Assembly (NCBI RefSeq): GCF_030028105.1
Contig: NC_092393.1
Coordinates: 36,309,248-36,373,247, forward strand
Origin: Mobula birostris
Taxonomy: Eukaryota
Reading direction: 5' to 3'
DNA: 64,000 nucleotides
Part shown: in pieces, positions 4,803 to 63,085 of the stretch
Layout: the number at the start of each line of letters is the position of its first letter
How positions within the stretch are numbered: position 1 is the stretch's first letter
Notes under the pieces: model-generated
The model's database searches: none
The model's input: the letters and a program-made list of their open reading frames with translations, nothing else
Told to the model about the DNA's origin: nothing
Made by a program: the position numbers and the translations under genes

Positions 4803-6665
4803 GAATGGTTGTCCATCATACTGGACGATACCAGTTCGACTTGTGCATTCTGTTTTGTGTTCGTGAGGAACTACTGAGTCTGAGTTGTGAGTGGACCCTT
4901 TGCTTCTTTGTCAGGAAGAAATTAGTACTGCTCGGCTTTTCTCCTTCAAGTTGTTGTGAGCAGTTCTAACCAATGTATGTCAGCCAATCCGGTCTTACGC
5001 ATTCTGTTCTAGCCATTTTAATAAAAGCCCAGCATGTGCTCTCACACAGTCTTTGAACCTGTACCTTGATTCCTATTGCCCAGCAAAAGCTCATCATATA
5101 GAAGCTGCCTGGGGATTTGGGAATCATTCATGTGTATGACACACTCTGTCCACTGATGCTATGCTTCTACAATCATGTCCTCAACACTCGTGGTCCCTGC
5201 CATGTCGAGGGCTTCCAGGTTTAGTCATAGTCATAGCCATAGTCATACTTTATTGATCTCGAGGGAAATTTGGTTTCGTTACAGTTGCACCAACCAAGAA
5301 CAGAGTATAAATATAACAATATAAAACTATAAATAATTAAATAGTAATATGTAAATTATGCCAGGAAATAAGCCCAGGACCAGCCTATTGCCTCAGGGTG
5401 TTTGACCCTCCAAGGGAGGAGTTGTAAAGTTTGATGGCCACAGGCAGGAATGACTTCCTATGACGCTCTGTGTTTCATCTCGGTGGAATGAGTCTCTGGC
5501 TGAATGTACTCCTGTGCCCAACCAGTACATTATGTAGTGGATGGGAGACATTGTCCAAGATGGCGTGCAACTTGGACAGCATCCTCTTTTCAGACACCAC
5601 CGTGAGAGAGTCCAGTTCCATCCCTATAGCATCACTGGCCTTGCGAATGAGTTTGTTGATTCTGTTGGTGTCTGCTACCCTCAGCCTGCTGCCCCAGCAC
5701 ACAATAGCAAACATGATAGCACTGGTCACCACAGACTCATAGAACATCCTCAGCATCGTCCGGCAGATGTTAAAGGACCTCAGTCTCCTCAGGAAATAGA
5801 GACGACTCTGACCCTTCTTGTAGACAGCCTCAGTGTTCTTTAACCAGTCCAGTTTATTGTCAATTCATAACCCCAGGTATTTGTAATCCTCCACCATGTC
5901 CACACTGACCCCCTGGATGGAAACAGGGGTCACTGGTGCCTTAGCCCTCCTCAGGTCCACCACCAGCTCCTTAGTCTTTTTCACATTAAGCTGCAGGTAA
6001 TTCTGCTCACACCATGTGACGAAGTTTCCTACCGTAGCAGGTTTGTGACTCAGACCTGCCAACAGATACTGAGGATTGACCTCACACTACACATATGGAA
6101 TCCTTCTAGTATTTTGAGGTGTCTTCTGTAAATGGTCCAGATTTCATATCCATACAGGAGACTGCTGAGGAGAACAGCTTTGTACACCTTCAGTTTTGAG
6201 GACAGGGAGATATTGTGCTGCAATCGTAGTCGACCAAGGCACTGGCCGGCCTTGCAAATCCTAGCGCAGACTTCTCTGTCCAGTGATTCTGGGGAGCTAC
6301 TTGAATTCTTCCACTGTTCTCAGTCTTGTTCCCTCAATAGTTATAGAGGGGGTTGTAGCAGCTGATCCAGGAGCAGGTTGAAATAGGACTTCTATCTTGC
6401 TTAGGCTGTCACTAAATCCAAAGATATGTGAGGCTTCAGCAAACTTGTTGACCATTAGTTAAAAGTCAGACTCAGTGTGTGCCCTCGGAGCGCAGTTGTT
6501 GGTGTACAGGGCTTCAAGGATGAATTTGTTGCTATCTTTGTTCAGGCACTCAGATGACACAGGTCGAGGAGTGATCCATCAAGTCCATACTTCAGGTAGA
6601 CACCACATTCAAGGTCTTTGATTGTGTGGTTCAGCACTTAAGTGTGCTTCTTCATCTTTGGCATC
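4803..6665 (-). mobile_element. RTE-clade LINE fragment nested in CR1 and split by a Rex1 insertion
   Basis: Minus-strand KLKVYKAVLLSSLLYGYEIWTIYRRHLK...ICWQ (6050-6200) continues as TNLEALDMAG...IPRQLLYDELLLG (5070-5220): RTE RT C-terminal region. Confidence 0.75.
5223..6037 (-). mobile_element. Rex1/Babar-clade LINE, 5'-truncated, copy 1
   Basis: QLNVKKTKELVVD, FYESVVTSAIMFAIVCWG, SHPLH motifs; (CTATGA)n tail; TSD caggttt at 5216-5222 and 6038-6044. Confidence 0.9.
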
Positions 6666-8761
6666 TATCTATCCTGCACCTTCCAAATTCCCCCTAGAAA
6701 CTACTGCTATTGTTGCTCTGCCATTATTCCTGCTCGTGTCCTGTAGAGATTAACTTTGCCCTCTGTAATTCACATTACTCCATTGTAATACTGATTCATC
6801 TGACTTTATGTTCTTCATCTCAAACTGCAAAGTGAATTCTATCATATTATGATCACTATCTCTTAAGGGTTCCTGTACCTTAAGCTTCCTAATAAAATCT
6901 GATTCATTATGCAATGCCAGTATTACCATTCCCCTAATAGGCTCAACTACAAGCTGCTTTAAAAACCCATCTCCTAGGCATTCTACAAATTCCCTCTCTT
7001 GGGATCAAGCAACAACCAGATTTTTCCCAATCTATCTGTGTATTGAAATCCCTATGACTATCATAACATTGCCCTTATTGCATGCCTTTTCTGTAATTTA
7101 TATCCTACATCCTGACTACCGTTCAGAGGCCTGTATATAACTGCCATCAGGGTCTTATTACCCTTGCAATGTCTTAACTCTACCCACAAGGATTCTACAT
7201 CTTCCAATCCTATGTCACCTCTTCCTAAGGATTTGATTTAATATTTTGCCAACAGACCTATCCCACCCCCTCTACCTATCTTCCTATCCATTTGATAAAA
7301 TGTGTGTCCTTGGATGTTAAACTCCTCACTGTGATGCTGTTTCAGCCACAACTCAGTGATGCCCTCAATGTCATACCTTCCAACCTCTTAACTGCACTCG
7401 GTTCATCTACCTTATTCTGTATACTGCGTGCATTCAAGTATAACACGTTCAGTCCTGTATTCATCACCCTTTTTGATTTTGCCCCCATGCCATCTCACTG
7501 ACTGCAATTATACCCTATCATCTGTCTGACCATCCTCACAGTCTCACTGCACAATGCATTGACATGTATACCAATTTACCCCATCCTCACTCCTATCTCT
7601 CCGGTTCCCATCCTCCTGCCAGGTTAGTTTAAATCCTGCCCAACAGCTCTAACAAGCTCGTCCACAAGGATATTGGTCCCCGTCGGATTCGGGTGTAACC
7701 GATCTTTTTTGCACAGGCCCTTTTTTCCCCAGAAGAGATCCCAGTGATCCAGAAAACTGAAAGCCTTCCCCTGCACCACTTCCTCAGCCACTCATTCATC
7801 TGTGCTATCACTCTATTCTTGTCCTGACTAGCATATGGTACTGGGAGTAATCCTGAGGTTACTACCTTCGAGGTCCTGCTCTTCAGCCTCTTCCCTAACT
7901 CCCTATACTCACTGCACAGGACCTCTTCCTCCTTTCTACTTTTGTCATTGGTGCCAATGTGCATCACAACCTCTAGCCCACCTTCACTCTTGAGAATCTT
8001 CTGCAGCTGCTCTGAGACATCCCAGACCCTAACTCATGGGAGGGAACACACCATCCTGGCATCTTTTTTTATGGCCGCAGAGTCTCCTAACCATCGTCCT
8101 AACTATCGAGTCTCCTTATCACTATCGCCCTGCCAGACTTTACCCTTCCCTGCTGAACCTCAGAGTTGGCCATAGTGCCACTGGCCTGGCTTTTGCTGTT
8201 GTACCCTAACAGGTCATTCCTGCTCCCAGTAGAATTCAACGGGGTGCACTTGTTGCTGAGGGGAATGGCCACAGTGAGACCCTGTGCTGACTGCTTACTC
8301 CCCTTAATTCTGCTGCTGGTCACCCATCTACTATCCCCTTTCTCAACCTCTCGGTCTCCATCTTTGGAGACAGACTGTCCACTGACATCTACAAGCCCAC
8401 TGACTCTCATAACTACCTTGACTATACCTCTTCCCACCCCGCCACATGCAAAAATGCCATTCCCTATTCCCAGTTCCTCCGTCTCTGCCACATCTGCTCC
8501 CAGGATGAGGTTTTCCGTTCCAGGACATCTCAAATGTCCACTTTCTTTAAGGATCGTGGTTTCCCTTCTGCCATCATCAATCATGCCCTCACCCGCATCT
8601 CCTCCATTTCCCGCACTTCGGACCTCACCCCATCCTCCCGCCACCACAACAGGAACAGAGTTCCACTTGTCCTCACTTGTTCCACCAGCCTCTGGATCCA
8701 GCACATTATCCTCCGCAACTTCCGCCACCTTCAACAGGACCCCACCACTAAGCACATCTTT

Positions 8762-8802
8762 CGATCAATAAAGTCGATCAATAAAGTATGACTACTACTA
8801 CT
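8762..8802 (+). mobile_element. 41-bp extreme 3' tail of a Rex1-like LINE inserted into the Penelope ORF
   Basis: gatcaataaagtatgacta matches the Rex1 3' ends at ~5240 and ~27295 (reverse complement); TSD atcttt at 8756-8761 and 8803-8808. Confidence 0.8.
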
Positions 8803-9572
8803 ATCTTTCCCTCTACACCCCTCTCCGCTTTCCGCAGGAACTGGTCCCTCCGCGACTCCCTGATCCACACGTCCCTCCCCACGGATCTCCCACCCGGCAC
8901 TTATCCCTGTAAGCGTAAGTGCTACATCTGTCCCTACACCTCCTCTCTTGCCACCATTCAGGGCTCCAAACAGTCCTTCCAGGTGAGGCAACACTTCACT
9001 TGTGAGTCTGTTGGGGTCATCTATTGCATCCGGTGCTCCCGGTGTGGCCTCCTGTACATTAGTGAAACCCGACGCAGATTGGGGGACCGCTTCGTCGAGC
9101 ACCTCCGCTCCGTCCGCCACAACAGACAGGATCTCTCGGTAGCCACCCACTTCAACTCTGCCTCACATTCCCATTTGGATATGCCCATATATGGCCTCCT
9201 CTACTGCCATGATGAAGCCAAACTCAGGTTGGAGGAGCAACACCTCATATACTGTCTAGGTAGTCTCCAGCCCCTTGGTATGAACATAGAATTCTCCAAC
9301 TTCCAGTAATTCCCTCCCCCTCCCTTCCTCTATCCCTATTTCACTCTGCCCCCTCCCCTAGCTGCCTATCACCTCCCTCATGGTTCCACCTCCTTCTACT
9401 ACCCATTGTGTTTTCCCCATTCCTTCTACACCTTTCCTGCCTATCCTCTCCCTGCTTCCCCTCCCCCACCCCTTTATCTTTCCCCTTACTGGTTTTTCAC
9501 CTGGAACCTACCAGCCTTCTCCTTCCCACCCTCCCCCCACCTTCTTTATAGAGCCTCTGCCCCTTCCCTCTA

Positions 9573-13911: not shown

Positions 13912-14701
13912 CAGGGGTCCCCAACCTTTTTTGCACTGCGGACCGGTTTAATATTGACAATATTCTTGCGGACCGGCCAACCGGGGGGAGTGGGGGGGGG
14001 GCGGTGTTCAGGTAGGGTTAAACTCACCTCAACATGTCTTTTACAGTTAGGGTTGCCAACTTTCTCACTCCCAAATAAAGGACAAAAGTAGCAGTCAAAT
14101 CCCGGGACACTTTACCCCAAGAAAGACTACCATGACCATGAAGCCTTGCACGGGCACCTGTGTGCGCATGCGTGACATGCGCATGTGATGTGCGCATGTG
14201 CGTACGTGCCGAATTTTTCTCCCACAAGTTGGTTTTGCCTTCATCTTCCCGACTATACTGTACATACATTATTTCAACTTTATATAGGCTGTGTATTTAT
14301 CATATCATTCCTGCTTTTACTATATGTTAGTGTTATTTATTTTTGGTTTTATGTGTTATTTGGTATGATTTGTTAGGTTATTTTTTGGTTCTGGGAACGC
14401 TCAAAAATTTTTCCCATATAAATTAATGGTAATTGCTTCTTCGCTTCACGCCATTTCGGCACAAAAGGTTTCATAGGAACGCTCTACCTTAGCGGAGGAA
14501 ATACGGGACAAGGGCGATCCCTGTGGGACAAACGAATTTAGCCCAATAAATGGGATGTCCCAGCAAACATGGGACAGTTGGCAACCCTATGTTCAAGTTC
14601 AACAGTGCGTGACAGGGAATGAGGAAAGGTGCAGCTGACTCACATTGTTTCCTCGTGGCCCAGTAGCACATGCTTTGCGGCCCGGTGGTTGGGGACTGCT
14701 G
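13912..14701. mobile_element. hAT-Charlie type MITE (composite)
   Basis: TIR caggggtccccaacc / ggttggggactgctg; 8-bp TSD acctagaa (13904-13911) / gcctagaa (14702-14709). Confidence 0.85.
14013..14589. mobile_element. Nested second hAT MITE (TAGGGTTGCCAAC type)
   Basis: TIR tagggttgccaact (14048) / agttggcaacccta (14589), gggac subterminal repeats; 8-bp TSD tgttcagg (14005-14012) / tgttcaag (14590-14597) flanks an outer tagggtt end at 14013. Confidence 0.7.
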
Positions 14702-15172: not shown

Positions 15173-17535
15173 TTTCACATGTTTGGTGCACACAGCTGAA
15201 GACAGGTTATCTGGAAGCTACTACATCACTGTTTCATGACAGGTTGTTTTCCATGAGTTGTATTACAACATTGACCACACTTCAATGATGTTTCATTACC
15301 TCTAAAGCACTTTGGACGGTCAGGAAAGGGGCAATATGACTGCAAGTCTTTATTTCCTTACAGTTTCATACTTTATTCTAAACCACAGAATGCATGTTAT
15401 GTTGATTTACTCTTTAATCAACTGATTAAGGGATATTCTTGGCTAACGTTTTAAAGATCTATATGTAACAAAGCAACTTCTTTCTTTTAATTGATTTTCT
15501 TTTAGACTCACAATTTTATTCCTTTTATTAATAAATATGTTTTAATGCAAAATATGACAAGGTTCTCCTTTGGCGGAGTACTTACCCGATCCCAGCAATA
15601 ACAAATTCTTAGTGCAATACAATGGTGGCACAATGTTTCTACGTGCACCAGTTCCTCAGAACCTATTGGGATCAGCGTCATGGGAAAGCTGAAAGGACCA
15701 TAACAATACTAAGCAAGCTCACCAACCGGAAGAAGGTTAACCATTCACTGAAAAAGAAAGTGAATGAGCTAGCATACTTTGCTATAAAGACGAGATTCTG
15801 CAAATGCTTGAAATCCAAAATGTCCTGAGTCCTGATAAAGGGTCTCGGCCCAAAATGTCAACTGTTTCTACCTGTCCATAGATACTGCCTGACCTTCTGA
15901 GTGTTACTCTAGAATATTGTACTGTACTCTGTAGTACAGGAGTGCACCAGGGAGATGAAGTTTTTCTATTTTAACTATAAAATTGTTCAAAATTACAGTA
16001 AAACTGTGATTTGTTTGCTATAGACATAGCTGCCACATACGGAAACAAGACATTTACCATGTGCTTGTCAACACAAATTAGTTTTATGGTTGTTTTCTAG
16101 AAGCTCTGATGGACGTTGTTGCTTTTTTTTATATTGTCAATCAAGGAAAAATTGCTGTAGAAGCTTATCAAAAATTGGAAGTCTCTACAACTGTTTCCTT
16201 GGTGTTTGGTCACCTTAGCATCTTTTTAAGGCTATATAGTATTGTTTGTCATTTGCAGAATGTGTGCTCACATTACAGCTATTGTAATTTTTGGACAAAT
16301 ATGTCTTTAAGCTGCTGATATTTCCTACGCACCTCCTTACCTTTTTAATCACATCAGAAACATTAAGTTAAATAGAACATTGGGATAAAACCATTAATGG
16401 CTTAATTTTGATTTATTGTATAATGGTTGTAAACACTTCTACATGATTTCTTTCTCAAGCCCGTTTGTTTTTGCCCTTTTCTTTTTTAAGCTCCACACCA
16501 TATTGATCATGTTCTGAATTCTGCTGGTCATAGCAGTAAATCTGAATAATTAAGTTAAGATGCATTAGATTAGGGCATGCAGCACTCTTTATATCTCACC
16601 AGTAAATATATGCTGCTAATAATGCAAACTACTTGAAACACCTTTACACATGGCAACCTGAAATGGGTTATTTTGCCTCAAGATTTCTCTCCTTTTGGCT
16701 ACAACTAGCTCACTGAATGCTTAACATTGCCATGACGAAGTAAGACAAAGACAACTTCATGACTTTCGTCATTAGCAGGGATCCGTGTTTATATTGGTGA
16801 GGACACACTTGTTTAGATAATGGCATATTTGCCTAATTCATGAGTCAAAATTGTTTGTTTACTGGCATTCCTGGCCTTGGCAGGATTTTTTAATTTGTAA
16901 TTGTACAACAGTGTAAAACAACATGGTTTGCCAATGAACATTAATGAAGGAAGGTTATTTAACAATATTCATAAGGCTGTTTATTCAGACCTGGTTTATT
17001 ACAAACCACAGATCATAGTCACTTTTGTCTTTGGTCAGCAAGGGTCTGTGGAATATCAACTCTTAACTAATTTGTACAATTTTTTCTTTCAGTGCATACA
17101 TTAATATGGTAAAAATCCACTCAATTTTCAGTCCTTTCCCAAGTATTACTGGAAAATATCTTAGGAATTGTTTTCACCTCCTTTGAAGTCAGTGGTGCAT
17201 GCCTGAAAATAGTTTCACAAACTGTGCCAGTCCTCCAGAATTTTTCCAGAGTGCCAGTTTTTATATGTGTGCAGGGAGAGAGACTGTAAACATCTCCACC
17301 CAACCAATTCCTTCTTGAGTAGATACTGATTGAAGCATTATATTATCACTAATATTTTTTTCTTTTCAGTTGTTGGAAATTAGAAAAATTCTCTGCATTT
17401 TCTTGAATACAGTTTTGGGGTAACATCAATGATCAAAACAATTTATATCTGTAGGGCAACTTTTCTGTTGAGCAAATCATTCCAAGCCACCATCAAATTT
17501 GACACTGAGGAACATGAGGAGATCAAAATGCAGCT

Positions 17536-17788
17536 TGTTATGTTTTGTGAATCTAAACCACAAAGCTAATCAAAATAAAAACAAGGGGGAGTCAAGGATA
17601 ACTCATGTATTTTGTTTTTAACCCTAAGAGTGAGGCGTGCATGTTTCACGTGGAGACGTAGTGACGTATGCCATTTCCATACTTTTACATATAACTCGCA
17701 TTGCATTAGGTAAACAACAAAAAATGCTTAATCAAACAATATATTTACAATTTTACTCAAATAGTACTAAAATATTAAATACACAACA
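17536..17788 (-). repeat. 3' LTR (253 bp) with adjacent polypurine tract
   Basis: tgttatgttttgt...aatattaaatacacaaca; followed by ctctttcctctcctttc (minus strand gaaaggagaggaaagag = PPT). Confidence 0.85.
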
Positions 17789-17838
17789 CTCTTTCCTCTC
17801 CTTTCATAGCTATACACTCCAGCTCAATATAGAATGTG

Positions 17839-17844
<6 letters not shown>

Positions 17845-17878
<34 letters not shown>
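17845..17878. repeat. (TA)n microsatellite in the LTR element 3' UTR
   Basis: tatatatatatatatatata... Confidence 0.95.
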
Positions 17879-17879
<1 letters not shown>

Positions 17880-17884
17880 TTAAT

Positions 17885-18090
17885 TTAGGCCTAAAGATTT
17901 AATCTCTATGGAAGATTTCTTACTCTTGTGGGATTACGTCTTTCCTGACAAGAAAAGTCACTCTGCTTGGCAGGTGAGACTTGTGGCTTTGTAGAAAATC
18001 ACAGGTTCTGGGTCCTCCTCCATGGTGGTTGTAGACATTGATTCTGAGTCTGCTGGAGGTGGCTCTGACAGCCATGGACACCTCTCTTCT
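17885..18090 (-). pseudogene. Gypsy pol (integrase) C-terminal tail remnant
   Basis: Minus strand EERCPWLSEPP..STTTMEEDPEPVISTKPQVSPAKQSDFSCQERRNPTRVRNLP*RLNL* (RRYPxRxRxPPxRL-type Gypsy IN end). Confidence 0.65.
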
Positions 18091-18890
18091 CTTTTTCTTG
18101 GGTTTTCCTTCATTATCTACTTCAATCCTTGCTTCTCTTCATATCCTGGCCTTTTTCTCTCTATTTATCCCACTCTTGATCCCTATCATGGTCTTACTCA
18201 CAGTCCTGAATCTACTCATGTTGTCATTCCAGCTTTTTATTTCTTCTTGTTTCCTGTGATTATCCCTGAATTTGCTAATTTCTCAAGAAATTAGCTTTTC
18301 TTCATCCTATTCTATTTCCATGGCTCTTATGTCCTCTTTCATTTCTTTTCTCTTCTTTCCAGGATGTGCATCTTTATCTTGGGAAGGTGCATTTAGTTCA
18401 CTAAAGTATTCTTTTATTAATCCTTCTTTTGCTCCCTTTACAATCTGATTTCTGCTGTTGCTTTCTCATCCATAACATCATTTGACGAATCCTCTGTTTT
18501 CGTATCTCCATTGATTCCTTTATTTTTGGCCTTCCATTCATCCATCTGGGCTTTGGTCTTTGCATCTACTTTTACAAGCAGCTTTCTGTCTCTCACTTGA
18601 AGTTTGTGCAATAATTTTAATTCACAGAGTTGATTCTGATTCTTTATACTCACACAAACTGAATGCTTGCAACTTTCCTGAAAGTTCTTGAACTCCCCTC
18701 CAGCTTAAACCTGAGCCACATTTCACAATGAACTGACCAATTATCATTTCAGAAGCTTTCTCAGATACGTTGCTTACAAAAACTGTTGTAGTCAGATCAC
18801 TGCGTTCATCACTTTGATGATTCCTCTGAGCAGCACGGCCCTTCCTTGGTCCAATATGCTTTCCAACCAGAGCTACAGAGGTTGGACCAT
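18090..18890 (-). pseudogene. RBM25: Processed (intronless) partial retrocopy of RNA-binding protein 25 (RRM through start of the RE/RD-rich region)
   Basis: Minus strand VGKHIGPRK...TTTVFVSNVSEKASEMII.QFIVKCG..LSWRGVQELSGKLQAFSLCEYKESESTL..LKLLHKLQVRDRKLLVKVDAKTKAQMDEWKAK...IKEYFSELNAPSQDKDAHPGKKRKEMKEDIRAMEIE*DEEKLIS*EISKFRDNHRKQEE; colinear with vertebrate RBM25, no introns, with stops and frameshifts. Confidence 0.92.
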
Positions 18891-18937
18891 AAATTGTTTT
18901 CCCTCTGTTAGGCAACAGTTCACGGTATACTGCATAG

Positions 18938-20203
18938 ACACAGTTGTAGCATTCTCCAGGACCTTTCTTAATTTGCTTTCAGTTGGCAATTTTACAGGGG
19001 ATGGGGCATACAAATGGTGGGTGGATCTCCAATCAAGTTGTAGTTGTCTCAGTCAAATCATGTTACCACAATGATCGCCCTTCTGCTTTTACCACATAAA
19101 AGCCTAGTGTGGATTGTTGGTTGTTGTATTTTACTGTTACAAAATGTCATTCCCACAAGAGTTAATCTTTTCTCCAATATAAATTCTTAGTTAGATACCT
19201 GTAGGCTTCAGTTCTGTATCTTTGAAATGCCATTCAAACTGATTTTGTGGAATGACTGAAACAGCCAAGTCACTGTCCAATTCCATTTTAATTTTTTTAC
19301 TGTTTACTTCTGGTGTAAGCCATATGGCTTATCTATTGTTTTTGCATTGTAAATCTCAAGTCTACTCAGTCCAGTGTCACTCTAATCATAATCAGATTTT
19401 TCATCAACAGCACGCAAGTTAGAACTCTTTTAGAAACTGCAACTTGATGATTTTTTTTATTTATTTATAGCCTTTTCTTTTCGCTATGCAGTGAATTTAT
19501 TTTTGTTTGCCCAACATGCTCTTTGTATATGTTCTTCTTCGTGGCATTTTCTGCAAGTTTCACCTTTAAACCTGCATTGGTCTTGTGTACATGAGCCCTT
19601 GCCACAACAGTAACACCAATTTGTTTGGCCAAGCCAGTTACTGTTTAGAAATTGCAATTTTGTTCACACTCACTTTCATTCCTTAATACAAGTGAATTGT
19701 GTCTCTGCCTGCTGTTTCCATTGATACAGCCATTTCAACAGCTCTTTTAAATGTAAGTTGTGCTTTAGGTAGGAGCGATTTTTGTATGCTTTCTTGTAAG
19801 ATTCCACAAACTAAGCGATCTCTCAGTGCAGCATTAAACCCATTACTGAACTGTCAATGCTGAGAAATTCTCTTCAATTCAGCCACAAACGCTGAAATGG
19901 ACTCCTCTTCCTTTTGATTCCATTTATGAAACCTAGAGTACCTACAATCAACACTGGCTTCAGTTCTAAATGTTCCAACATTGCTTTCACAATATCAGCG
20001 AAGCTCATTTTGCCTGGTTTGGTTGGAGCAGTTAAACTGCTAAGCAAACTGTATGCCTTTAAATTCAAAGCACTGACCCAAAATTGGTAATTGTTTCTCA
20101 TTGGCTATTCAATCTGATTTACAAATACTGCTCAATTAGTTCAGTACACTTAAACCAGTTATCTATTGTGTAATCAAACGTGTCAATCTTTCCAATGTGC
20201 CAT
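18938..20203 (-). pseudogene. Gypsy gag-protease remnant
   Basis: KAYSLLSSLTAPTKP...LRDRLVCGI; knuckles CYCCGKGSCTQDQC and intact CRKCHEEEHIQRAC (~19515-19615); protease MELDSDLAVSVI (~19255-19290); LRQLQLDWRS linker; breaks off at ~18938. Confidence 0.85.
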
Positions 20204-20454
20204 TTCTGCTCTTTTCTTAATGATCATCATCACCTAGTGCTCACTGTTTATGAACCTGTGAATTCTTCCATTTTCTGCCTTTTTTTAATTCGAATGAATT
20301 TCTCGCCTTGCGAAGAAGAAGGAAAAACCTTGCTGTGCTGCTGTGTTGCACTTGGCCGTTTCTTGCTGTGCTTCTTAAAACCGTGAATATCTTGCTGCAC
20401 TTCAATAGGTACCTAGTCATTTCAGGTTGATTTTTAAAAATACCTCATCGACAC

Positions 20455-20675
20455 TGTTATGTTTTGTAACTACAAAACATAAAAACTAATTAAAAGGAAA
20501 ACAAGAAAGCTAGGAATGCAAGTCTAATTTTATTTTTACTTTAAGCGAGGTGCATGCATATCATTTATGTACTTTTACTTATATCCCTCAATGCAATATG
20601 TAAACAACAAAAGATGCTCAATCAAACAATGCATTTACATTATCACTCAAATTATTAAATATTAAATCCACAACA
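20455..20675 (-). repeat. 5' LTR (221 bp) with adjacent PBS-like sequence
   Basis: tgttatgttttgt...aatattaaatccacaaca; internal flank reads gtgtcgatgagg on the minus strand (degenerate tggcgacgagg-type PBS). Confidence 0.85.
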
Positions 20676-21632
20676 CATCAGACCTAAAGTCTGATTAAAG
20701 ATGTGGGCATTAAGGACTGTCTTAAATGAAAAAAGGAGAGAGAGAAAGAGAGAGAGATTTCAAGGCCATTCACAGTAGGAGAAATTACTGATGATGATTA
20801 AAATTAAAGATGCTAAAGAGATCAGATTTTGTGGATTATATGTAGATATCTGAAGGTTACAGAAGAGAAGGTGGGGCAAAGCCATGGAACAATTTGGAGA
20901 GATGTCTTTGATCTATTAGTGTAAGCAGATAAAAATCTCCACTCAGCAGGTCATCCAAAAGGAAGAAGCATGAATAGTTTACTTTTCCCTCTCTAACGCA
21001 AGGAAATTTCGTCAGTGGTTTCATCCCAGTGCTGCCCAACCAAGATAAATTAACTTCAACAGAGAAGGAATGAACCCAGGACTTTCCTGATATTGCGGAG
21101 ATATTATATCCATCCTGCCAAAGAGACATAGATGTTCTACCTGTAACAAAGTATTTCAGGGTATTAGAAAAAAAAAACTGCTGATGGAGCTATTTGGCTA
21201 ACTTTCCTGATAAGCTCCTTAAGCGAGTCTCGCATAATGTCAATGTATATTTTGAAGATAGGAGGCACTAATAGATCCTTTTTCATAAACAATGCTAAGA
21301 TAATGTTACTCAATTTGCACAGATTGCTTATGGGCTTTGATATTGAAAAGTATGAAGGATAAGGCTGAGAGGCAGCACTCCCATCGAGGTCACCTGATAG
21401 CAGTTTCAAGCCACTCTCCAGAGTCTTGAGCGCATTATCTGATTGGCAAAACTGAAGGAACGATGCAATGACAACAGTGCTGCCTATAGCCTCTATTTAT
21501 ACTTGGAGCTAATACTACATCAAGTCTATCCACTTGCTGTTGAGCATGAGCACACAGAAAAGAATCAACTGAGACATTCAGAAATATTCTAAGTAGGAGA
21601 CCACAGGAGCCATTTGTGGTAAACCATATATA

Positions 21633-22864: not shown

Positions 22865-23113
22865 GGTAACCAAGAAGCCACAGCACCCCCAGAAGCAATG
22901 GCACAGCCCTATCCCCCGGCCCAGTACCCCACACCGCAGAACGGAATCCCCGCTGAATATGCTCCAGCGCACCCACACCCTACTCAGGACTACACCGGAC
23001 AGACCACGGTACCAGAGCACGCCATGACCATCTACACACCCACGCAGACGCATTCCGACCAGCCGTGCACTGATGCAAACACACAGTCCTTAACGGGCGC
23101 ATCCACAGTACCG
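22865..23113 (+). CDS. RBFOX3: Coding exon of RNA-binding Fox-1 homolog (N-terminal Pro/Thr-rich region), most like RBFOX3/NeuN
   Basis: Acceptor ttgtttcag|GGT at 22864/5, donor CCG|gtaagt at 23113/4; 83 codons [63 protein letters not shown]...TVP; PYPPAQY and HPTQDY fit RBFOX3 better than RBFOX1/2; MAQP ATG at 22898. Confidence 0.93.
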
Positions 23114-27277: not shown

Positions 27278-28332
27278 CATAGTCATAGTCATAGTCATAC
27301 TTTATTGATCCCGAGGGAAATTGATTTTCGTTACAGTTGCCCCAACCAAGAGTAGAGTATAAATATATCAATATAAAACCATAAATAATTAAATAGTAAT
27401 ATGTAAATTATGCCAGGAAATAAGTCCAGGACCAGCCTATTGCCTCAGGGTGTTTGACCCTCCAAGGGAGACGTTGTAAAGTTTGATGGCCACAGGCAGG
27501 AATGACTTCCTATGATGCTCAGTGTTGCATCTCGGTGGAATGAGTCTCTGGCTGAATGTACTCCTGTGCCCAACTAGTACATTATGTAGTGGATGGGAGA
27601 CATTGTCCAAGATGGCATACAACTTGGACAGCATCCTCTATTCAGACACCACCGTCAGAGAGTCCAGTTCCACCCCCACAGCATCACTGGCCTTACGAAT
27701 GAGTTTGTTGATTCTGTTGGTGTCTGCTACCCTCAGCCTGCTGCCCCAGCACACAACAGCAAACATGATAGCACTGGTCACCACAGACTCGTAGAACATC
27801 CTCAGCACCGTCCAACAGATGTTAAAGGACCTCAGTCTCCTCAGGAAATAGAGACGGCTCTGACCCTTCTTGTAGACAGCCTTAGTGTTCTTTGACCAGT
27901 CCAGTTTATTGTCAATTCGTATCCCCAGGTATTTCTAATCCTCCACCATGTCCACACTAACCCCCTGGATGGCTACAGGGGTCACCGGTGCCTCAGCCCT
28001 CCTCAGATCCACCACCAGCTCCTTAGTCTTTTTCACATTAAGCTGCAGATAATTCTGCTCACACCATGTGACAAAGTTTCCTACCGTAGCCCTGTACTCA
28101 GCCTCATCTCCCTTGTTGATGCATCTGACTATGGCAGAGTCATCAGAAAACTTCTGAAGATGGTAAGACTCTGTACAGTAGTTGAAGTCCGAGGTGTAGA
28201 TGGTGAAGAGAAAGGGAGACAAGACAGTCCCCTGTGGAGCCCCAGTGCTGCTGATCACTCTGTCGGACACACAGTATTGTAATCACACGTACTGTGGTCT
28301 GCCGGTCAGGTAATCAAGAATCCATGACACCA
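27278..28332 (-). mobile_element. Rex1/Babar LINE, 5'-truncated, copy 2 (same young family as 5223-6037)
   Basis: ORF 27935..28270 GAPQGTVLSPFLFTIYTSD...KFSDD; (CTATGA)n tail; visually >90% identical to copy 1; inserted in the tail of a V-SINE. Confidence 0.9.
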
Positions 28333-52069: not shown

Positions 52070-55000
52070 AGACAGACAAGAGAAAATCTGCAGATGCTGG
52101 AAATCCAAGCAAAATGCTGGAGGAACTCAGCAGGCCAGGCAGAGACGAGCTGACATTTTAGGCAGAGACCCTTCATCAGAACTGGGGAAACACAAGGTTA
52201 TAGGTTAAACTGGGAGTGGAGAGGGAAGGGGTGAAGTAAAGAGCTGGGAAGTTGATTGGTGAAAGATTATAGGGCTGGAGAAGGGGGAATCTGATAGGAG
52301 AGAACAGAAGGCCATGGAAGAAAGAAAAAGGGGAAGAGCACCAGAGGGAGGTGATGGACAGGTAAAGAAATAACGTGAGAGAGGGAAATGGGAACGGGGA
52401 ATGGTGAAGGAGGGTAAAGGGCATGACCAGAAGTTTGAGAAATCAATGCTCATGCCATCAGGTTGGAGGCTACCCAGACAAAATATGTGTTGTTCCTCCA
52501 GCTTGAGTGTGGCCTCATCATGACAGTGGAGGAGGCCACAGATTGACATATTGGAATGAGAATGGGAAGTGGAATTAAGATGGGTGGCCACTGGGAGATC
52601 CTGCTTCTTCTGATGGATGGAGTGTAGGTGCTCGGTGAAGCAGTCGCCCAGTCTTCATCAGGTCTCACTGATATCACAAGACAAAGGAGCAGAAGTAGGC
52701 CATTCGGCCCAACGAGTCTACTCCGCAGCTCCCCCATGAGCTAAACTATTCACCCATCTAGTTCCAATTTCCGGCTTTTTCCCCATATCCCTTGATACCC
52801 TGACTAATTAGATACCTGTCAATCTCCTCCTTAAACACCCTCAATGATTGGGCCTCCACAGCTGTGTTTGGCAACGAATTCCACAAATCCACGACCCTCT
52901 GGCTAAAAAAGTTTCTCCTCATCTCTGTTTTAACTGGGTACCCTCTAATTCTAAGACTATGGCCTCTTGTCCTGGACTCACCCACCAAGGGAAACAACCT
53001 TTCCACATCTACTCTGTCCAACCCTTTCAACATTCGAAATCTTTCTATGAGATCCCCTCTCAATCTTCTATACTCTAATGAATACAGTCCAAGAGCCGAC
53101 AAACGCCCTGCATTCCAGGAATCATCCTCGTAAATCTTCTCTGAGCTCTCTCCAACATCAGTACATCCTTTCTAAGATAGGGGGCCCAAAACTGCACACA
53201 GTATTCCAAATGAGGTCTCACTAATGCCCCATAGAGCCTCATGAACACCTCCTTACTCTTGTACACTATTCCTCTTGAAATGAATGCCAACCGCCGATCC
53301 AACTTGTGGTTAACCTTTAGGGTATCCTGCACGAGGACCCCCAAGTCCCTTTGCACTTCTGATTTTTGAATTTTCTTCCCATCTAAATAATAATCTACCT
53401 GATTATTTCTTCTTCCAAAATGTACAACCGTACATTTGTCAACGTTGTATCTCAGCTGCCATTTCTTTGCCCACTCTCCCAAACTGACTAAGTGTCTCTG
53501 CAACCTTTCCGTTTCTTCAACATTTCCCACTCCTCCACCTATCTTGGTGTCATCCGCAAACTTAGTCAGAAAACTATTTAATCCATAATCCAAATCATCG
53601 ATATACATCATAAAAAGAAGCGGCCCCAACATCGACCCCTGCGGAACACCACTAGTAACCGGCAACCAATCAGAATAGGATCCCTTTATTCCCATCCTTT
53701 GCTTTCTGCCTATCAGGTAATGCTCCACCCATATCAATATCTTTCCTATAATTCCATGGGCTCTCATCTTATTAAGCAGCCTCATATGCGGCACCTTATC
53801 GAAGGCCTTTTGAAAATCCAAATACACAACATCCACAGCCTCTCCCTTGTCAATCTTATTCGAGATTACCTCAAAAAATTCCAATATGTTGGTGAGGCAG
53901 GATCTTCCCTTCATGAAACCATGCTGGCTTCGGCCTATCTTGTCATGCACCTCGAGGTATTTCATAACCTCGTCCTTGAGGATTGACTCCAATATCTTTC
54001 CAACTACCAATGTCAGACTAATAGATCTGTAATTTTCTTTTTGCTGCCTCCTTCCTTTCCCAAATAGCGGAACTTCATTTGCGACCTTCCAGTCCTCCGG
54101 AACCGTGCCAGAGTCTATTGATTCCTGGAAGATCATTTCCAATGCTTCCACAATCTCCAAAGCCACCTCCTTCAGAACCCTTGGGTGCACCTCAACCGGA
54201 ACAGGAGACTTATCTATTCTTAGTCCACTTAACTTCCCAAGCACTTTCTCTCTAGTAATCTTGAGTGTACCTAATTCTATTCCCTGATACCTCTGGCTAT
54301 CAGGTATATTGCTCATGTCTTCCACTGTGAAGACTGATGCAAAATACTCATTCAGTTCCTCCGCCATCTCTTTGTTATCCATTATAATTTCTCCAGCATC
54401 ATTTTCAATTGGTCCCGTATCTGCCCTTGTCACTCTTTTACTCTTCATATATTTAAAAAAACTTAGTATCCTTTTTTATGTTAATCGCCAACTTCCTTTC
54501 ATAATTAATCTTTTCTTTCCTAATGACTTCCTTAGTTTCCTCCTGTCAGTTTTTAAAAGTCTTCCAGTCCTCATTTTTCCCACTAATTTTTGCTTCCTTT
54601 TACGCCATTTCTTTTGCTTTTATTTTTGCCTTAACCTCTCTCGTTAGCCACATTTGTGCCATTTTTCCATTCATGATTTTCTTTTTTCTTGGAATATATT
54701 TTTCCTGCATTTTCCTTATTTCTTGTAGGAATTTCATCCAATTCTGCTCTGCCGTCCCTCCATTTAGCTTACTTTTCCAATCGACTTGGGCCAGTTCCTC
54801 TCTCTTACCACTGTAATTTCCCCTGTTCCACTGAAATATCGATACACCTGATACCAGCTTCTCCTTTTCAAATTTGAAAGTGAACTCAATCATATTATGA
54901 TCACTACTTCCAAGGGGTTCCTTTACCTCCAGCTCCCTAATCGCCTCGTTACACAGCACCCAATCCAAAACAGCCGGTCCCCTGGTGGGCTTCTGGACAA

Positions 55001-55605
55001 GCTGCTCCAAAAAGCCATCCTGTAGGCATTCTACAAACTCCCTCTCCTGAGATCCATTACCTTCCTGACTTTCCCAATCCACTTTCATATTAAAATCCCC
55101 CATAATTATCTTGACATTTTCCTTCTGACATGCTTTTTCTGTTTCCAGCTGCAACTTGTAGTCACATCCCGGCTGCTGTTTGGAGGCCTGTATATAACTG
55201 TTATTAGTGTCTTTTTACCCTTGCCATTTCTTAATTCTACCCATAAGGATTCTACCTCTTCTGATCCTATGTCCCTTCTTTCTATTGATTTGATATCGTT
55301 ACTTACCATCAGGGCCACGCCACCTCCTTTACCTACCTTCCTATCTTTCCTATACACTGTGTATCCTTGGATATTCAGCTCCCAATCATATCCATCATTT
55401 AGCCATGACTCGGTGATGGCCACAATGTCATACCTTTTAACCTGCAGCTGTGCAGCAAAGTCATCCACTTTATTTCTAATGCTGCGTATACAGGAGGTCA
55501 CATCGGGAGCACCAGATAGAGTAGATGACCCGAACACACTCACAGGTGAAGCATTGCTTCATCTGGAAGGACTGTTTGGGGCCCTAAATGGTAGTGAGGT
55601 GTCTT
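52070..55605 (-). mobile_element. Penelope-like element (pLTR + GIY-YIG) split by a CR1 insertion; parts 52070-52674 and 55488-55605
   Basis: ATHLNSTSHSHSNMSICGLLHCHDEATLKLEEQH (52205..52591); GIY-YIG segment resumes at 55488 (caggaggtcacatcgggagcacc). Confidence 0.8.
52675..55487 (-). mobile_element. Young CR1 LINE, ORF2 nearly intact (EN + RT), 5'-truncated
   Basis: ORFs 55106..55543 (ITESWL, YRKDR, IYRPP), 54600..55154 (GDFN, SDH) and 53075..54448 (YLDFQKAFDKVPH, GVPQGS.LGP, FADD). Confidence 0.93.
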
Positions 55606-60644: not shown

Positions 60645-63085
60645 CACACAGATTCTAATAAAACATTGGATCTCTTATATGCAAATATTAACGATGTCTA
60701 CATCTCTAAAGCACTCCCCCCATTTGGAAGATCAGATCACAGTCTGGTTCACCTCATTCCCTTGTAAAAGCCCAAAGTACTGCAAAATCCAGCTACCACC
60801 AGGATAGTAAAGAAATTGTTTCCAGAGGCCACCGAGGCCTTGAAGGGCTGCTTTGAGGTTACTGGCTAGAATATGCTTTGTGAACCATATGGGGAGGACA
60901 TTAACAGACTTACTGTTTGCATCACTGGCTACATCAACTTCTGTGGTGGACACTGTAATACAAGGACTGTTCACTGCTTCCCTTACAACAAACCATGGGT
61001 CACCAGTGATCTAAAAGCTCTTCTCAACCACAAAAAAGAGACCCTTTAGATCAGGAGGCAGTTCAGAGGGAGCTAAAGGAGAAGATGAAGGTGGCTAAAG
61101 AGGAATACAGGAGAGAGCTGGAGAACAAGTTTGGGCAGAGTGGCACACGGAAGGTGTGGAGAGGCATGAAGAACATCACTGGCTTCAATCAGCCTCACTG
61201 TAGAGCCTCGCAATGCAGCCATGAATGGGCTAATGAGTTAACCCAATTGTTCAATAGGTTTGACCATTGCCCTCCTGTCCACACCCCCCTCAGCACACCA
61301 GTCCATGTGCCGAGGCACCCAATGCTCCCTCAGCACCAACACCTCCCCTCCACCCTCCTCCCCTCTCCAGCTCAACATGTGGATGAACAACACAGGCTAC
61401 CACTTTCTACATCCCCTCCTTGCCTTGCACCTACTATCCACAACTCCACATACCAACTGCTATCGTCTTGATCTTCACCTCCCTCAGCCCCCACCTTGCA
61501 CCAACTTCCCAGACATCACCGACTCACCTTCACTACCGAGCCGGTGAGAAGGGCTCTGGCGAAACTCAGACTGAGATTGAGCATTGAGATCAGAAGGTGT
61601 GAACCCCAAGCTCCTGAAGGAGTGTGCTGAGCAGCTGTGCGGAGTTCTCCAGCATATTTTCAATTTGAGTCTCAGCCTGGAAAGGGTGATGACTGTGTGG
61701 AAACCATCGTATGTGGTCCCAGTACCCAAGAAGGGACAACTGAAAGTCTTGAGTAACTACCGTCCAGTGGCCCTGACCTCACACATCATGAAGACCTGAG
61801 AGAGGCTGGTCCTAGCTCACCTCCGACCCTTGGTCAGATCAGCACTCAATCCGCTGCAGTTTGCCTTCCAGGAGCACATTGGAGTCGATGATGCTATCAT
61901 CTATCTGCCGAACAAAGCCTACTCCTATTTGGATAAGCAGGGCAGCACTGTGAGGGTCATGTTGTTGATTCTTAAGTGCCTTCAATACCATACAGCCCTC
62001 ATTGCTGGGGGGAAAACTCCATTCAATGCAGGTTGGCACTTCCATTTTATCCTGGATAATGGACTACCTGACTGGCAGACCACAGCTTTTGTGGCTTCAG
62101 AGTTGTGTGTCAGACATGGCTATAAGCAGCACTGGGGCCCCACAGGACTGCACTGGCTCTCTTCTTGTTTACCCTGTATACCCCGGACTTTAGATACAAC
62201 ACTGAGTCATGTTGTCTGCAGAAATTATCTGATGACTCAGCAATAGTTGGGTGTATAAAGGGAGGATGGGAGGATGAATACAGGGCCCTGGTGGAGGACT
62301 TTGTCAAATGGTGCAAGCTGAATCATCTGCAGTTCATCATCTGTAAGACAGAGGAGATGGTGATGGAGTTTAGGAAGACTAAGCCTGCACTGCTCCCTGT
62401 TACTATTGATGGTGAGGATGTGGATGTGGTGAGGACCTACAAGTACCTGGGGGTGCATCTGGATGACAGACTTGAGTGGAGCATCAACACAGAGGCTGTG
62501 TACAAGAAGGGCCAGAGTCGCCTCAATTTCCTGAGGAGACTGAGGTCCTTTGGAGTATGCAGTCCTCTCCTTCACATGTTCTACCAGTCTGTTGTTGCCA
62601 GAACAATCTTCTATGTGGTGGTGTGCTAGGGAAATGGCATCAACACAGGTGATACCAACAGACTTAATAAACTGATTAGAAAGGCTGGCTCTGTTGAGAG
62701 TCAAGCTGGACACGTTGGAGGCTGTGATAGAACAAAGAACTCTACGGAAAATGCTGGCAATTCTGGGCAATGTTTCTCACCCTCTACATGCCACCTTGAC
62801 TGAACAGAGGAGCACTTTTAGTCATAGACTAGGACAACAGCATTGCTCCAAAGAGTGCTGTATGAGGTCATTCTTACCCTTGGCCATTAGGCTTTATAAT
62901 GAGTCAACCAGGGAAGTGATGACCCCCTCCTATTAAACTGTTTGAGGTAAGTTTTTAAAAATTTTTTCTTACTTCACTCCTAGCATTTGTATATTTATAT
63001 ATCTGCATTTGTAATGCTATTGTGACACTGTAAGTTCCTTTGGGATCAATAAAGTATCTATCATTCCATCCATCTATCTATCAAC
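60645..63085 (+). mobile_element. Rex1/Babar LINE (EN end + RT), decayed, inserted in an old minus-strand CR1 (60490-60640 and 63090-63530)
   Basis: GRSDH, KPWVT, LLKECAEQL..V.QHIFNLSL, YRPVALTSHIMK, KLSDD, YKYLG, SHPLH; tail gatcaataaagtatctatc. Confidence 0.88.

Follow-up and report, generated by a model that had tools for sequence, protein, structure and literature searches.

The window analyzed here, the whole stretch of DNA of 64,000 nucleotides, contains between positions 17536 and 20675 an old Gypsy element that is now dead and that carries, in place of its copying enzymes, a piece of coding sequence of the host splicing-factor gene RBM25 with no intron-sized gap. Its features, and the positions that flank it, are given below from the 5′ to the 3′ end of the element.

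20676..20680, minus strand, left copy of a possible decayed 5-bp target-site duplication, 3/5 bases matching 17531-17535
20455..20675, minus strand, 5′ LTR, 221 nt, TG...CA, without about 25 nt found in the 3′ LTR
20443..20454, minus strand, PBS-like site directly 3′ of the 5′ LTR
18939..20199, minus strand, gag, protease and linker, matching residues 4-414 of P0094, a 1312-aa fish Gypsy polyprotein
18898..18938, minus strand, filler at the 5′ junction, 41 nt, matching nothing convincingly
18086..18897, minus strand, RBM25 coding fragment, 812 nt, beginning just before the RRM and running through the RE-rich region
17894..18085, minus strand, integrase tail, last ~64 codons, with a low-complexity tail and a terminal motif
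17789..17805, minus strand, polypurine tract of 17 purines adjoining the 3′ LTR
17536..17788, minus strand, 3′ LTR, 253 nt, TG...CA
17531..17535, minus strand, right copy of the possible target-site duplication, partner of 20676..20680

Both this order and its coordinates, which a preliminary description had proposed, are reproduced by the alignments, and the outer limits at 20675 and 17536 are borne out by a pair of directly repeated LTRs, each starting TG and ending CA, with an alignment score of 178, against a best score of -1 in 500 shuffles. The LTRs differ at 42 of 218 aligned columns, in addition to the gap of ~25 nt. The cis signals had been described as retained but are decayed, with the LTRs 19% apart and the ~25-base gap in the 5′ copy. 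The site next to the 5′ LTR resembles what we take to be a decayed tRNA-Ser primer site, with mismatches, and there are no tRNA genes within the 64-kb window; tRNA-Ser is the commonest primer listed for mosquito elements of the Mag lineage in Table 1 of PMC3286476. At the exact termini of the element 3/5 bases of the possible target-site duplication agree, which is at chance level and neither proof nor disproof at the element's age. A 26-nt imperfect hairpin (20457-20482) lies at the U5 end of the 5′ LTR, and a (TA)17 microsatellite (17845-17878) follows the integrase stop and precedes the polypurine tract.

The paired TG...CA LTRs, the homologous gag and protease and the polypurine tract place the element in Ty3/Gypsy; the PR-RT-RH-IN order with integrase last is read from the homologues, the RT/RH/IN core being deleted in the element itself. 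The gag-protease query matched 22 proteins out of 605 candidates, and among the named ones are K02A2.6-like Gypsy polyproteins from ray-finned fishes. These homologous polyproteins carry RT, RNaseH and integrase in the Gypsy order. Against residues 4-414 of P0094, 211 of 406 aligned residues are identical, and the coding stretch is broken by nine stops and seven frameshifts. Two CCHC knuckles are present in gag (~19615-19574 and ~19555-19514), the first of which has lost its His, and the protease motif position (~19283-19269) is altered. A Pfam scan of the six raw frames of the element, which is too decayed, found no relevant families.

On the 5′ side the Gypsy homology stops at 18939, corresponding to residue 414 of the 1312 in P0094, and it resumes only in the integrase tail. 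In that tail the last ~20–35 codons are matched by sequence and the remainder is assigned by position and length; four of four references have 67–73 residues beyond the last conserved integrase motif. The C-terminal motif (17950-17894) matches five of seven polyproteins (shuffle p<=0.02). Thus 834 polyprotein residues, or ~2.5 kb, are absent exactly where the RBM25 segment lies, and no trace of the RT/RNaseH/integrase core is found anywhere in the 64-kb window at E<=1, in agreement with the multi-kb pol deletion claimed at this position. From these values we estimate a parent element of ~4.8 kb, compared with 3.14 kb for the chimera. A query with the 69-residue tail for a closer autonomous parent gave two candidates, neither at E<=1.

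It is conceivable that the two halves were once parts of different Gypsy copies, brought together beside an independent RBM25 retrocopy by a genomic deletion or by ectopic recombination, as the 19% difference between the LTRs, the ~25-nt gap and the 3/5 target-site match might suggest. However, the same five polyproteins (P0090, P0094, P0096, P0099 and P0100) match both halves, the alignment of the LTRs covers them from one end to the other, and the LTR distance agrees with the independent estimate of cargo decay (see below). We regard this explanation as very unlikely.

The RBM25 assignment of the cargo is secure. A 227-residue query gave 88 significant matches among 369 candidates (best E 2.5e-44), and all 88 are RRM/PWI proteins of the RBM25 type, some of them partial models, from Xenopus (2) and teleosts (86), with no cartilaginous fish or mammal in this reference set; all 89 tblastn rows fall within 18223-19026. 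In frameshift-aware alignments the cargo is 53–57% identical to three references. The two RBM25 ORFs taken alone returned no Pfam family. In the RE-rich stretch (18226-18086) 37 of 47 codons encode R, E, D or K or are CpG-decayed Arg codons, a count reached in none of 5000 shuffles, and the proposed identity of the segment, ~800 bp of RBM25 from the RRM to the RE-rich region, is upheld. The segment also has the orientation of gag-protease and has lost both mRNA ends, as claimed, with neither the RBM25 N-terminus nor the PWI end present in the 64-kb window at E<=1. The RE-rich part (18235-18086) is ~50 codons long, compared with roughly 75 or more in the references, which would reflect a deletion within it or a host protein that is itself shorter. 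With six or seven stops, three or four frameshifts and a neutral level of divergence at non-degenerate sites, the cargo does not have the properties of a functional retrogene; cargo and element are both dead, and there is no coding function today.

The earlier claim that the cargo is intronless holds in the sense that no intron-sized gap is present. About 270 codons are colinear with the RBM25 protein, and the extra bases within 18897-18086 amount to at most 2, 12 and 18 in the three references tried. Isoform insertions occur at three points inside the cargo (in 12+2, 1, and 7+4 of the 88 named RBM25 gene models); these points are probably exon junctions, and at each of the three the window sequence runs on without an insertion. 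In the human gene there are, we believe, about seven introns across the stretch matching the cargo. Judging from the gene models of other vertebrates, loss of introns relative to the host RBM25 gene is very likely. Our literature search found no publication on the exon structure of vertebrate RBM25, PMC3087554 being irrelevant as far as its accessible text goes. Duplication of part of the RBM25 gene at the DNA level could appeal to the fact that the exon structure is drawn from other vertebrates, but it would have to account for ~270 colinear codons with no more than 18 extra bases across three likely exon junctions, and we give it almost no credence.

The cargo also bears on where the RBM25 sequence came from. 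For the variable stretch that precedes the RRM, comparison with the two Xenopus proteins gives scores of 78 and 77, whereas none of the remaining 86 references, all teleost, exceeds 49, and the GKH motif of this stretch recurs only in the two from Xenopus. This pattern, Xenopus-like and not teleost-like, would fit a copy derived from the host, and it argues against import from a bony fish. Horizontal transfer of the cargo together with the element would be in keeping with the ray-finned fish origin of the closest polyproteins found, to which the gag segments are 59–71% identical, but given the scores of the pre-RRM stretch we consider it highly improbable.

At the 5′ junction the cargo is separated from the protease linker by a filler, the presence of which had been noted correctly and the length of which is 41 bases, not the ~45 bp given before. 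It has no stop in the gag-pol frame and no second copy in the 64-kb window, and 66 frame-by-protein tests gave no convincing match that would indicate its origin (best p=0.01 uncorrected). A faint likeness to an RNaseH stretch was rejected as unsupported, as were likenesses, by eye only, to an RT start or an intron acceptor. At the 3′ junction about ten purine-rich bases could belong either to RBM25, as its last bases, or to the tail, as its first, and would look like putative microhomology. The suggestion that both sides of this junction are purine-rich applies to the RBM25 side and not to the integrase tail, which is only 53% purine. The claimed absence of poly(A) is correct, the longest A-run near the 3′ junction being five. 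The further claim that the cargo lacks a target-site duplication of its own largely stands, although the junctions are not perfectly clean: a 7-base word is common to both junction zones (18902 and 18108). Shuffling produces such a word 14% of the time (p=0.14), and the right-hand copy sits inside sequence that is still readable as RBM25. The cargo therefore has no poly(A) and no convincing target-site duplication, and the 7-base word is the main point in favor of a later capture.

Such a capture is the main rival explanation, and repair of a break by spliced cDNA can yield a similar single locus. An RBM25 cDNA would have been patched into a double-strand break of a resident Gypsy element, or inserted by a LINE without a poly(A) end, with pol deleted and filler added. 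Capture of reverse-transcribed spliced mRNA at breaks is described in the available text of PMC4516963, filler DNA and a common 7-base word are present at the junctions, and the window contains CR1-like and other LINE remnants. On the other side, the cargo is no younger than the two LTRs, poly(A) is absent, the 7-base word is at chance level, and the orientation and two-ended truncation are those predicted by template switching. An insertion somewhat later than integration is possible, the age intervals being wide, but overall we judge later capture to be improbable.

The comparison of ages assumes that, if the cargo was captured during the reverse transcription that gave rise to the present copy, cargo and LTRs have had equal time to decay. 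The K2P distance between the LTRs is 0.225 (95% 0.16–0.30), and half of this, 0.11 (0.08–0.15), is the divergence per LTR. For the cargo, 29 of 238 non-degenerate sites differ (K2P 0.135, 0.085–0.193), counted against residues conserved in >=90% of the 88 references, which are frog and teleost proteins and not the true parent; the RRM alone gives 17/152 (K 0.123). A first cargo estimate (K 0.19) was dropped; it included the unreliable alignment of the RE-rich part. Stops occur at ~8.6 per kb in the cargo and 7.1 in gag-protease, frameshifts at ~3.7 and 5.6 per kb, and the CpG observed/expected ratios are 0.19 and 0.22. Because its divergence, disablements per kb and CpG loss are like those of the LTRs and gag-protease, the cargo is neither clearly younger, as for a later insertion, nor clearly older, as for long carriage in a family or a spell of selection. 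The equal decay would fit capture at or shortly before the present insertion. Given the width of the intervals and a reference other than the true parent, the element may also have gone through a rapid burst of copying, or the capture may have come slightly later. An apparent excess of G>A changes in the cargo (19 vs 4) disappears when the unreliable RE-rich alignment is left out and base counts are normalized (10/64 vs 4/39, p=0.56), and there is thus no hypermutation signal. A>G changes exceed T>C (7/86 vs 0/49, p=0.048 uncorrected).

The best explanation, and one we hold to be probable, is that the locus is an LTR-mediated retrocopy made by a double template switch. The cargo takes the place of 834 polyprotein residues and does not interrupt an otherwise continuous element, and it is same-sense and truncated at both ends; an mRNA fragment that replaces an internal part of the ORF between LTRs, with neither poly(A) nor its own target-site duplication, is what characterizes LTR-mediated retrocopies. 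The core proposal of the preliminary description, that mRNA capture by template switching replaced pol, thus agrees with orientation, truncation, absence of poly(A), site of the deletion and decay alike. Weighing against it are the 41-nt filler, which exceeds the 2–26 bp de novo inserts seen at some junctions in the portions of PMC5131818 available, and the weakness of the target-site evidence, with a word flanking the cargo in the manner of a target-site duplication (p=0.14) and a match of only 3/5 for the element.

Within a Gypsy particle, reverse transcriptase would have started copying the element RNA from its 3′ end and switched away from it some 64 codons into the integrase tail. A co-packaged spliced RBM25 mRNA may then have served as template for ~810 bases before the enzyme returned to the element RNA just after the protease, possibly via a short third template or untemplated bases that would correspond to the 41-nt filler. 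The resulting chimera of 3.14 kb, its parent having measured roughly 4.8 kb, would have integrated with enzymes supplied in trans and since then have decayed neutrally and been methylated. We infer the template-switch step, the microhomology, the trans-complementation and the loss of introns relative to the host gene.

On its testable features the locus is an LTR-mediated retrocopy of an already described class, of which there are vertebrate Gypsy examples (PMC5131818). According to the accessible portions of that study (Tan et al. 2016), partial mRNAs replace part of the internal ORF in all 15 assembled Drosophila cases, microsimilarity is present at 25 of 29 Drosophila junctions, the bases shared at switch points have a median of 6, and some copies re-mobilize. 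Five of seven young zebrafish retrocopies are reported there as LTR-mediated, and three zebrafish retrocopies have Gypsy flanks with 7–9% divergence. The zebrafish examples (Gypsy35/97/115/164) resemble our element in that a partial spliced mRNA, truncated at both ends and without poly(A), replaces part of the ORF. In comparison with the cases described in those portions, the cargo here is RBM25, the copy is older (~11–13%) yet both LTRs survive, the filler is longer, and the host, judging from its SINE family, is probably a ray or some other cartilaginous fish. RBM25 does not occur in the nine supplementary files of that paper that were searched, and no paper on an RBM25-carrying Gypsy element was found in the open-access literature searched and this supplement.

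Other systems share some of these properties. Maize Bs1 and Drosophila CG17604_r and CG10212_r, as summarized in the text seen of PMC5131818, are likewise non-autonomous LTR carriers of host exons, but they exist as several copies sharing switch points, whereas here there is one known copy with a disabled cargo. CrocERV31-nectin3 and CrocERV29-KIT-ligand also place a host mRNA inside an LTR element of a non-mammalian vertebrate, and in CrocERV31-nectin3 the capture cost an element gene (PMC4299795, from its available sections). These crocodilian elements are retroviruses in multicopy lineages with intact cargo under purifying selection, whereas our Gypsy element has no env and its cargo is dead.

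As for the element itself, the closest likeness is to fish K02A2.6-like Gypsy elements. These encode gag-pol, including two CCHC knuckles, in one ORF of ~1300 aa, and they share the short LTRs (~220–250 nt), the size of ~4.8 kb estimated for the parent, and the terminal integrase motif. We presume that this clade belongs to the Mag lineage (Jule-like). The Mag-lineage rows of Table 1 in PMC3286476, the part of that source used here, agree with the element in size, LTR length and a possible 5-bp target-site duplication. The clade name is a lead only, as RT, RNaseH and the integrase core are deleted.

The window also contains an open host exon:

22865..23113, plus strand, open host exon of 83 codons with AG/GT borders

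We take this to be an N-terminal exon of the RBFOX3 type. Of 12 short motifs, 2 matched, both within 22865-23113, and the rest of the window gave no match to motifs of the RRM exons of that family. The intron preceding the 83-codon exon probably harbors the element, in antisense orientation.

Several other repeats are present in the window. A CR1-like LINE (53075-55558, minus strand) has an endonuclease and a 466-codon RT ORF, and a GDSL-like ORF1 piece of a related LINE is found at 7632-8033 (minus strand). Penelope-like RT/GIY-YIG remnants lie at 8291-9309 (plus strand; with a weak GIY-YIG match, E 0.009) and 52205-52654 (minus strand). A decayed LINE RT region (61010-62629, plus strand) has a Pfam ALKBH8_N match of a sort we assume to be typical of LINE-derived ORFs. 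A SINE-like family (D3, D7 and D10), presumably typical of ray genomes, spans 9604-46304 and 29923-56516, with at least seven copies on one strand and six on the other. There is also a perfect 31-nt inverted pair 12.8 kb apart (1207-1237 and 14017-14047), and a 300-nt direct repeat (5226-5525 and 27278-27577; 94% identity) that is younger than the other repeats in the window.

The element had also been proposed to have amplified into an RBM25-carrying family, and for this we find no support. No second LTR, internal piece or cargo is present in the 64-kb window. A 118-residue ORF spanning the 5′ junction has 129 matches, which are at most 64% identical; none starts before query position 26, and none of the 129 covers the segment upstream of the cargo (positions 1–25). 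Many short matches end at positions 84–88 or 105–106, as exon-limited fragments would, an observation that bears on intron loss in the cargo and to which we give little weight. These are weak tests for an old and dead family, and amplification is unsupported, not refuted.

It is tempting to suppose that, in a lineage of cartilaginous fish, the chimera gave rise to a non-autonomous Gypsy family, multicopy but short-lived, that spread the RRM/RE region of RBM25, possibly first as a Gag-protease-RRM fusion reminiscent of retroviral gag-onc fusions, and that antisense copies within transcribed introns could be a source of small RNAs directed at the parent splicing factor; we consider this doubtful. 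If the element is indeed intronic and antisense, the host pre-mRNA would contain antisense RBM25, and silencing RNAs derived from retrocopies exist elsewhere (PMC9674220, in the part available).

A single dead copy changes no model, and the locus would matter more with a multicopy family sharing both junctions, or with small RNAs matching RBM25. As it stands it is an RBM25 pseudogene fragment that can mislead annotation and repeat libraries. If the host is a cartilaginous fish, LTR-mediated retroposition would be extended to a vertebrate group that is not among the species of PMC5131818, as far as its available portions go, and with such chimeras still recognizable at ~12% decay, a genome-wide census in that group would be feasible.
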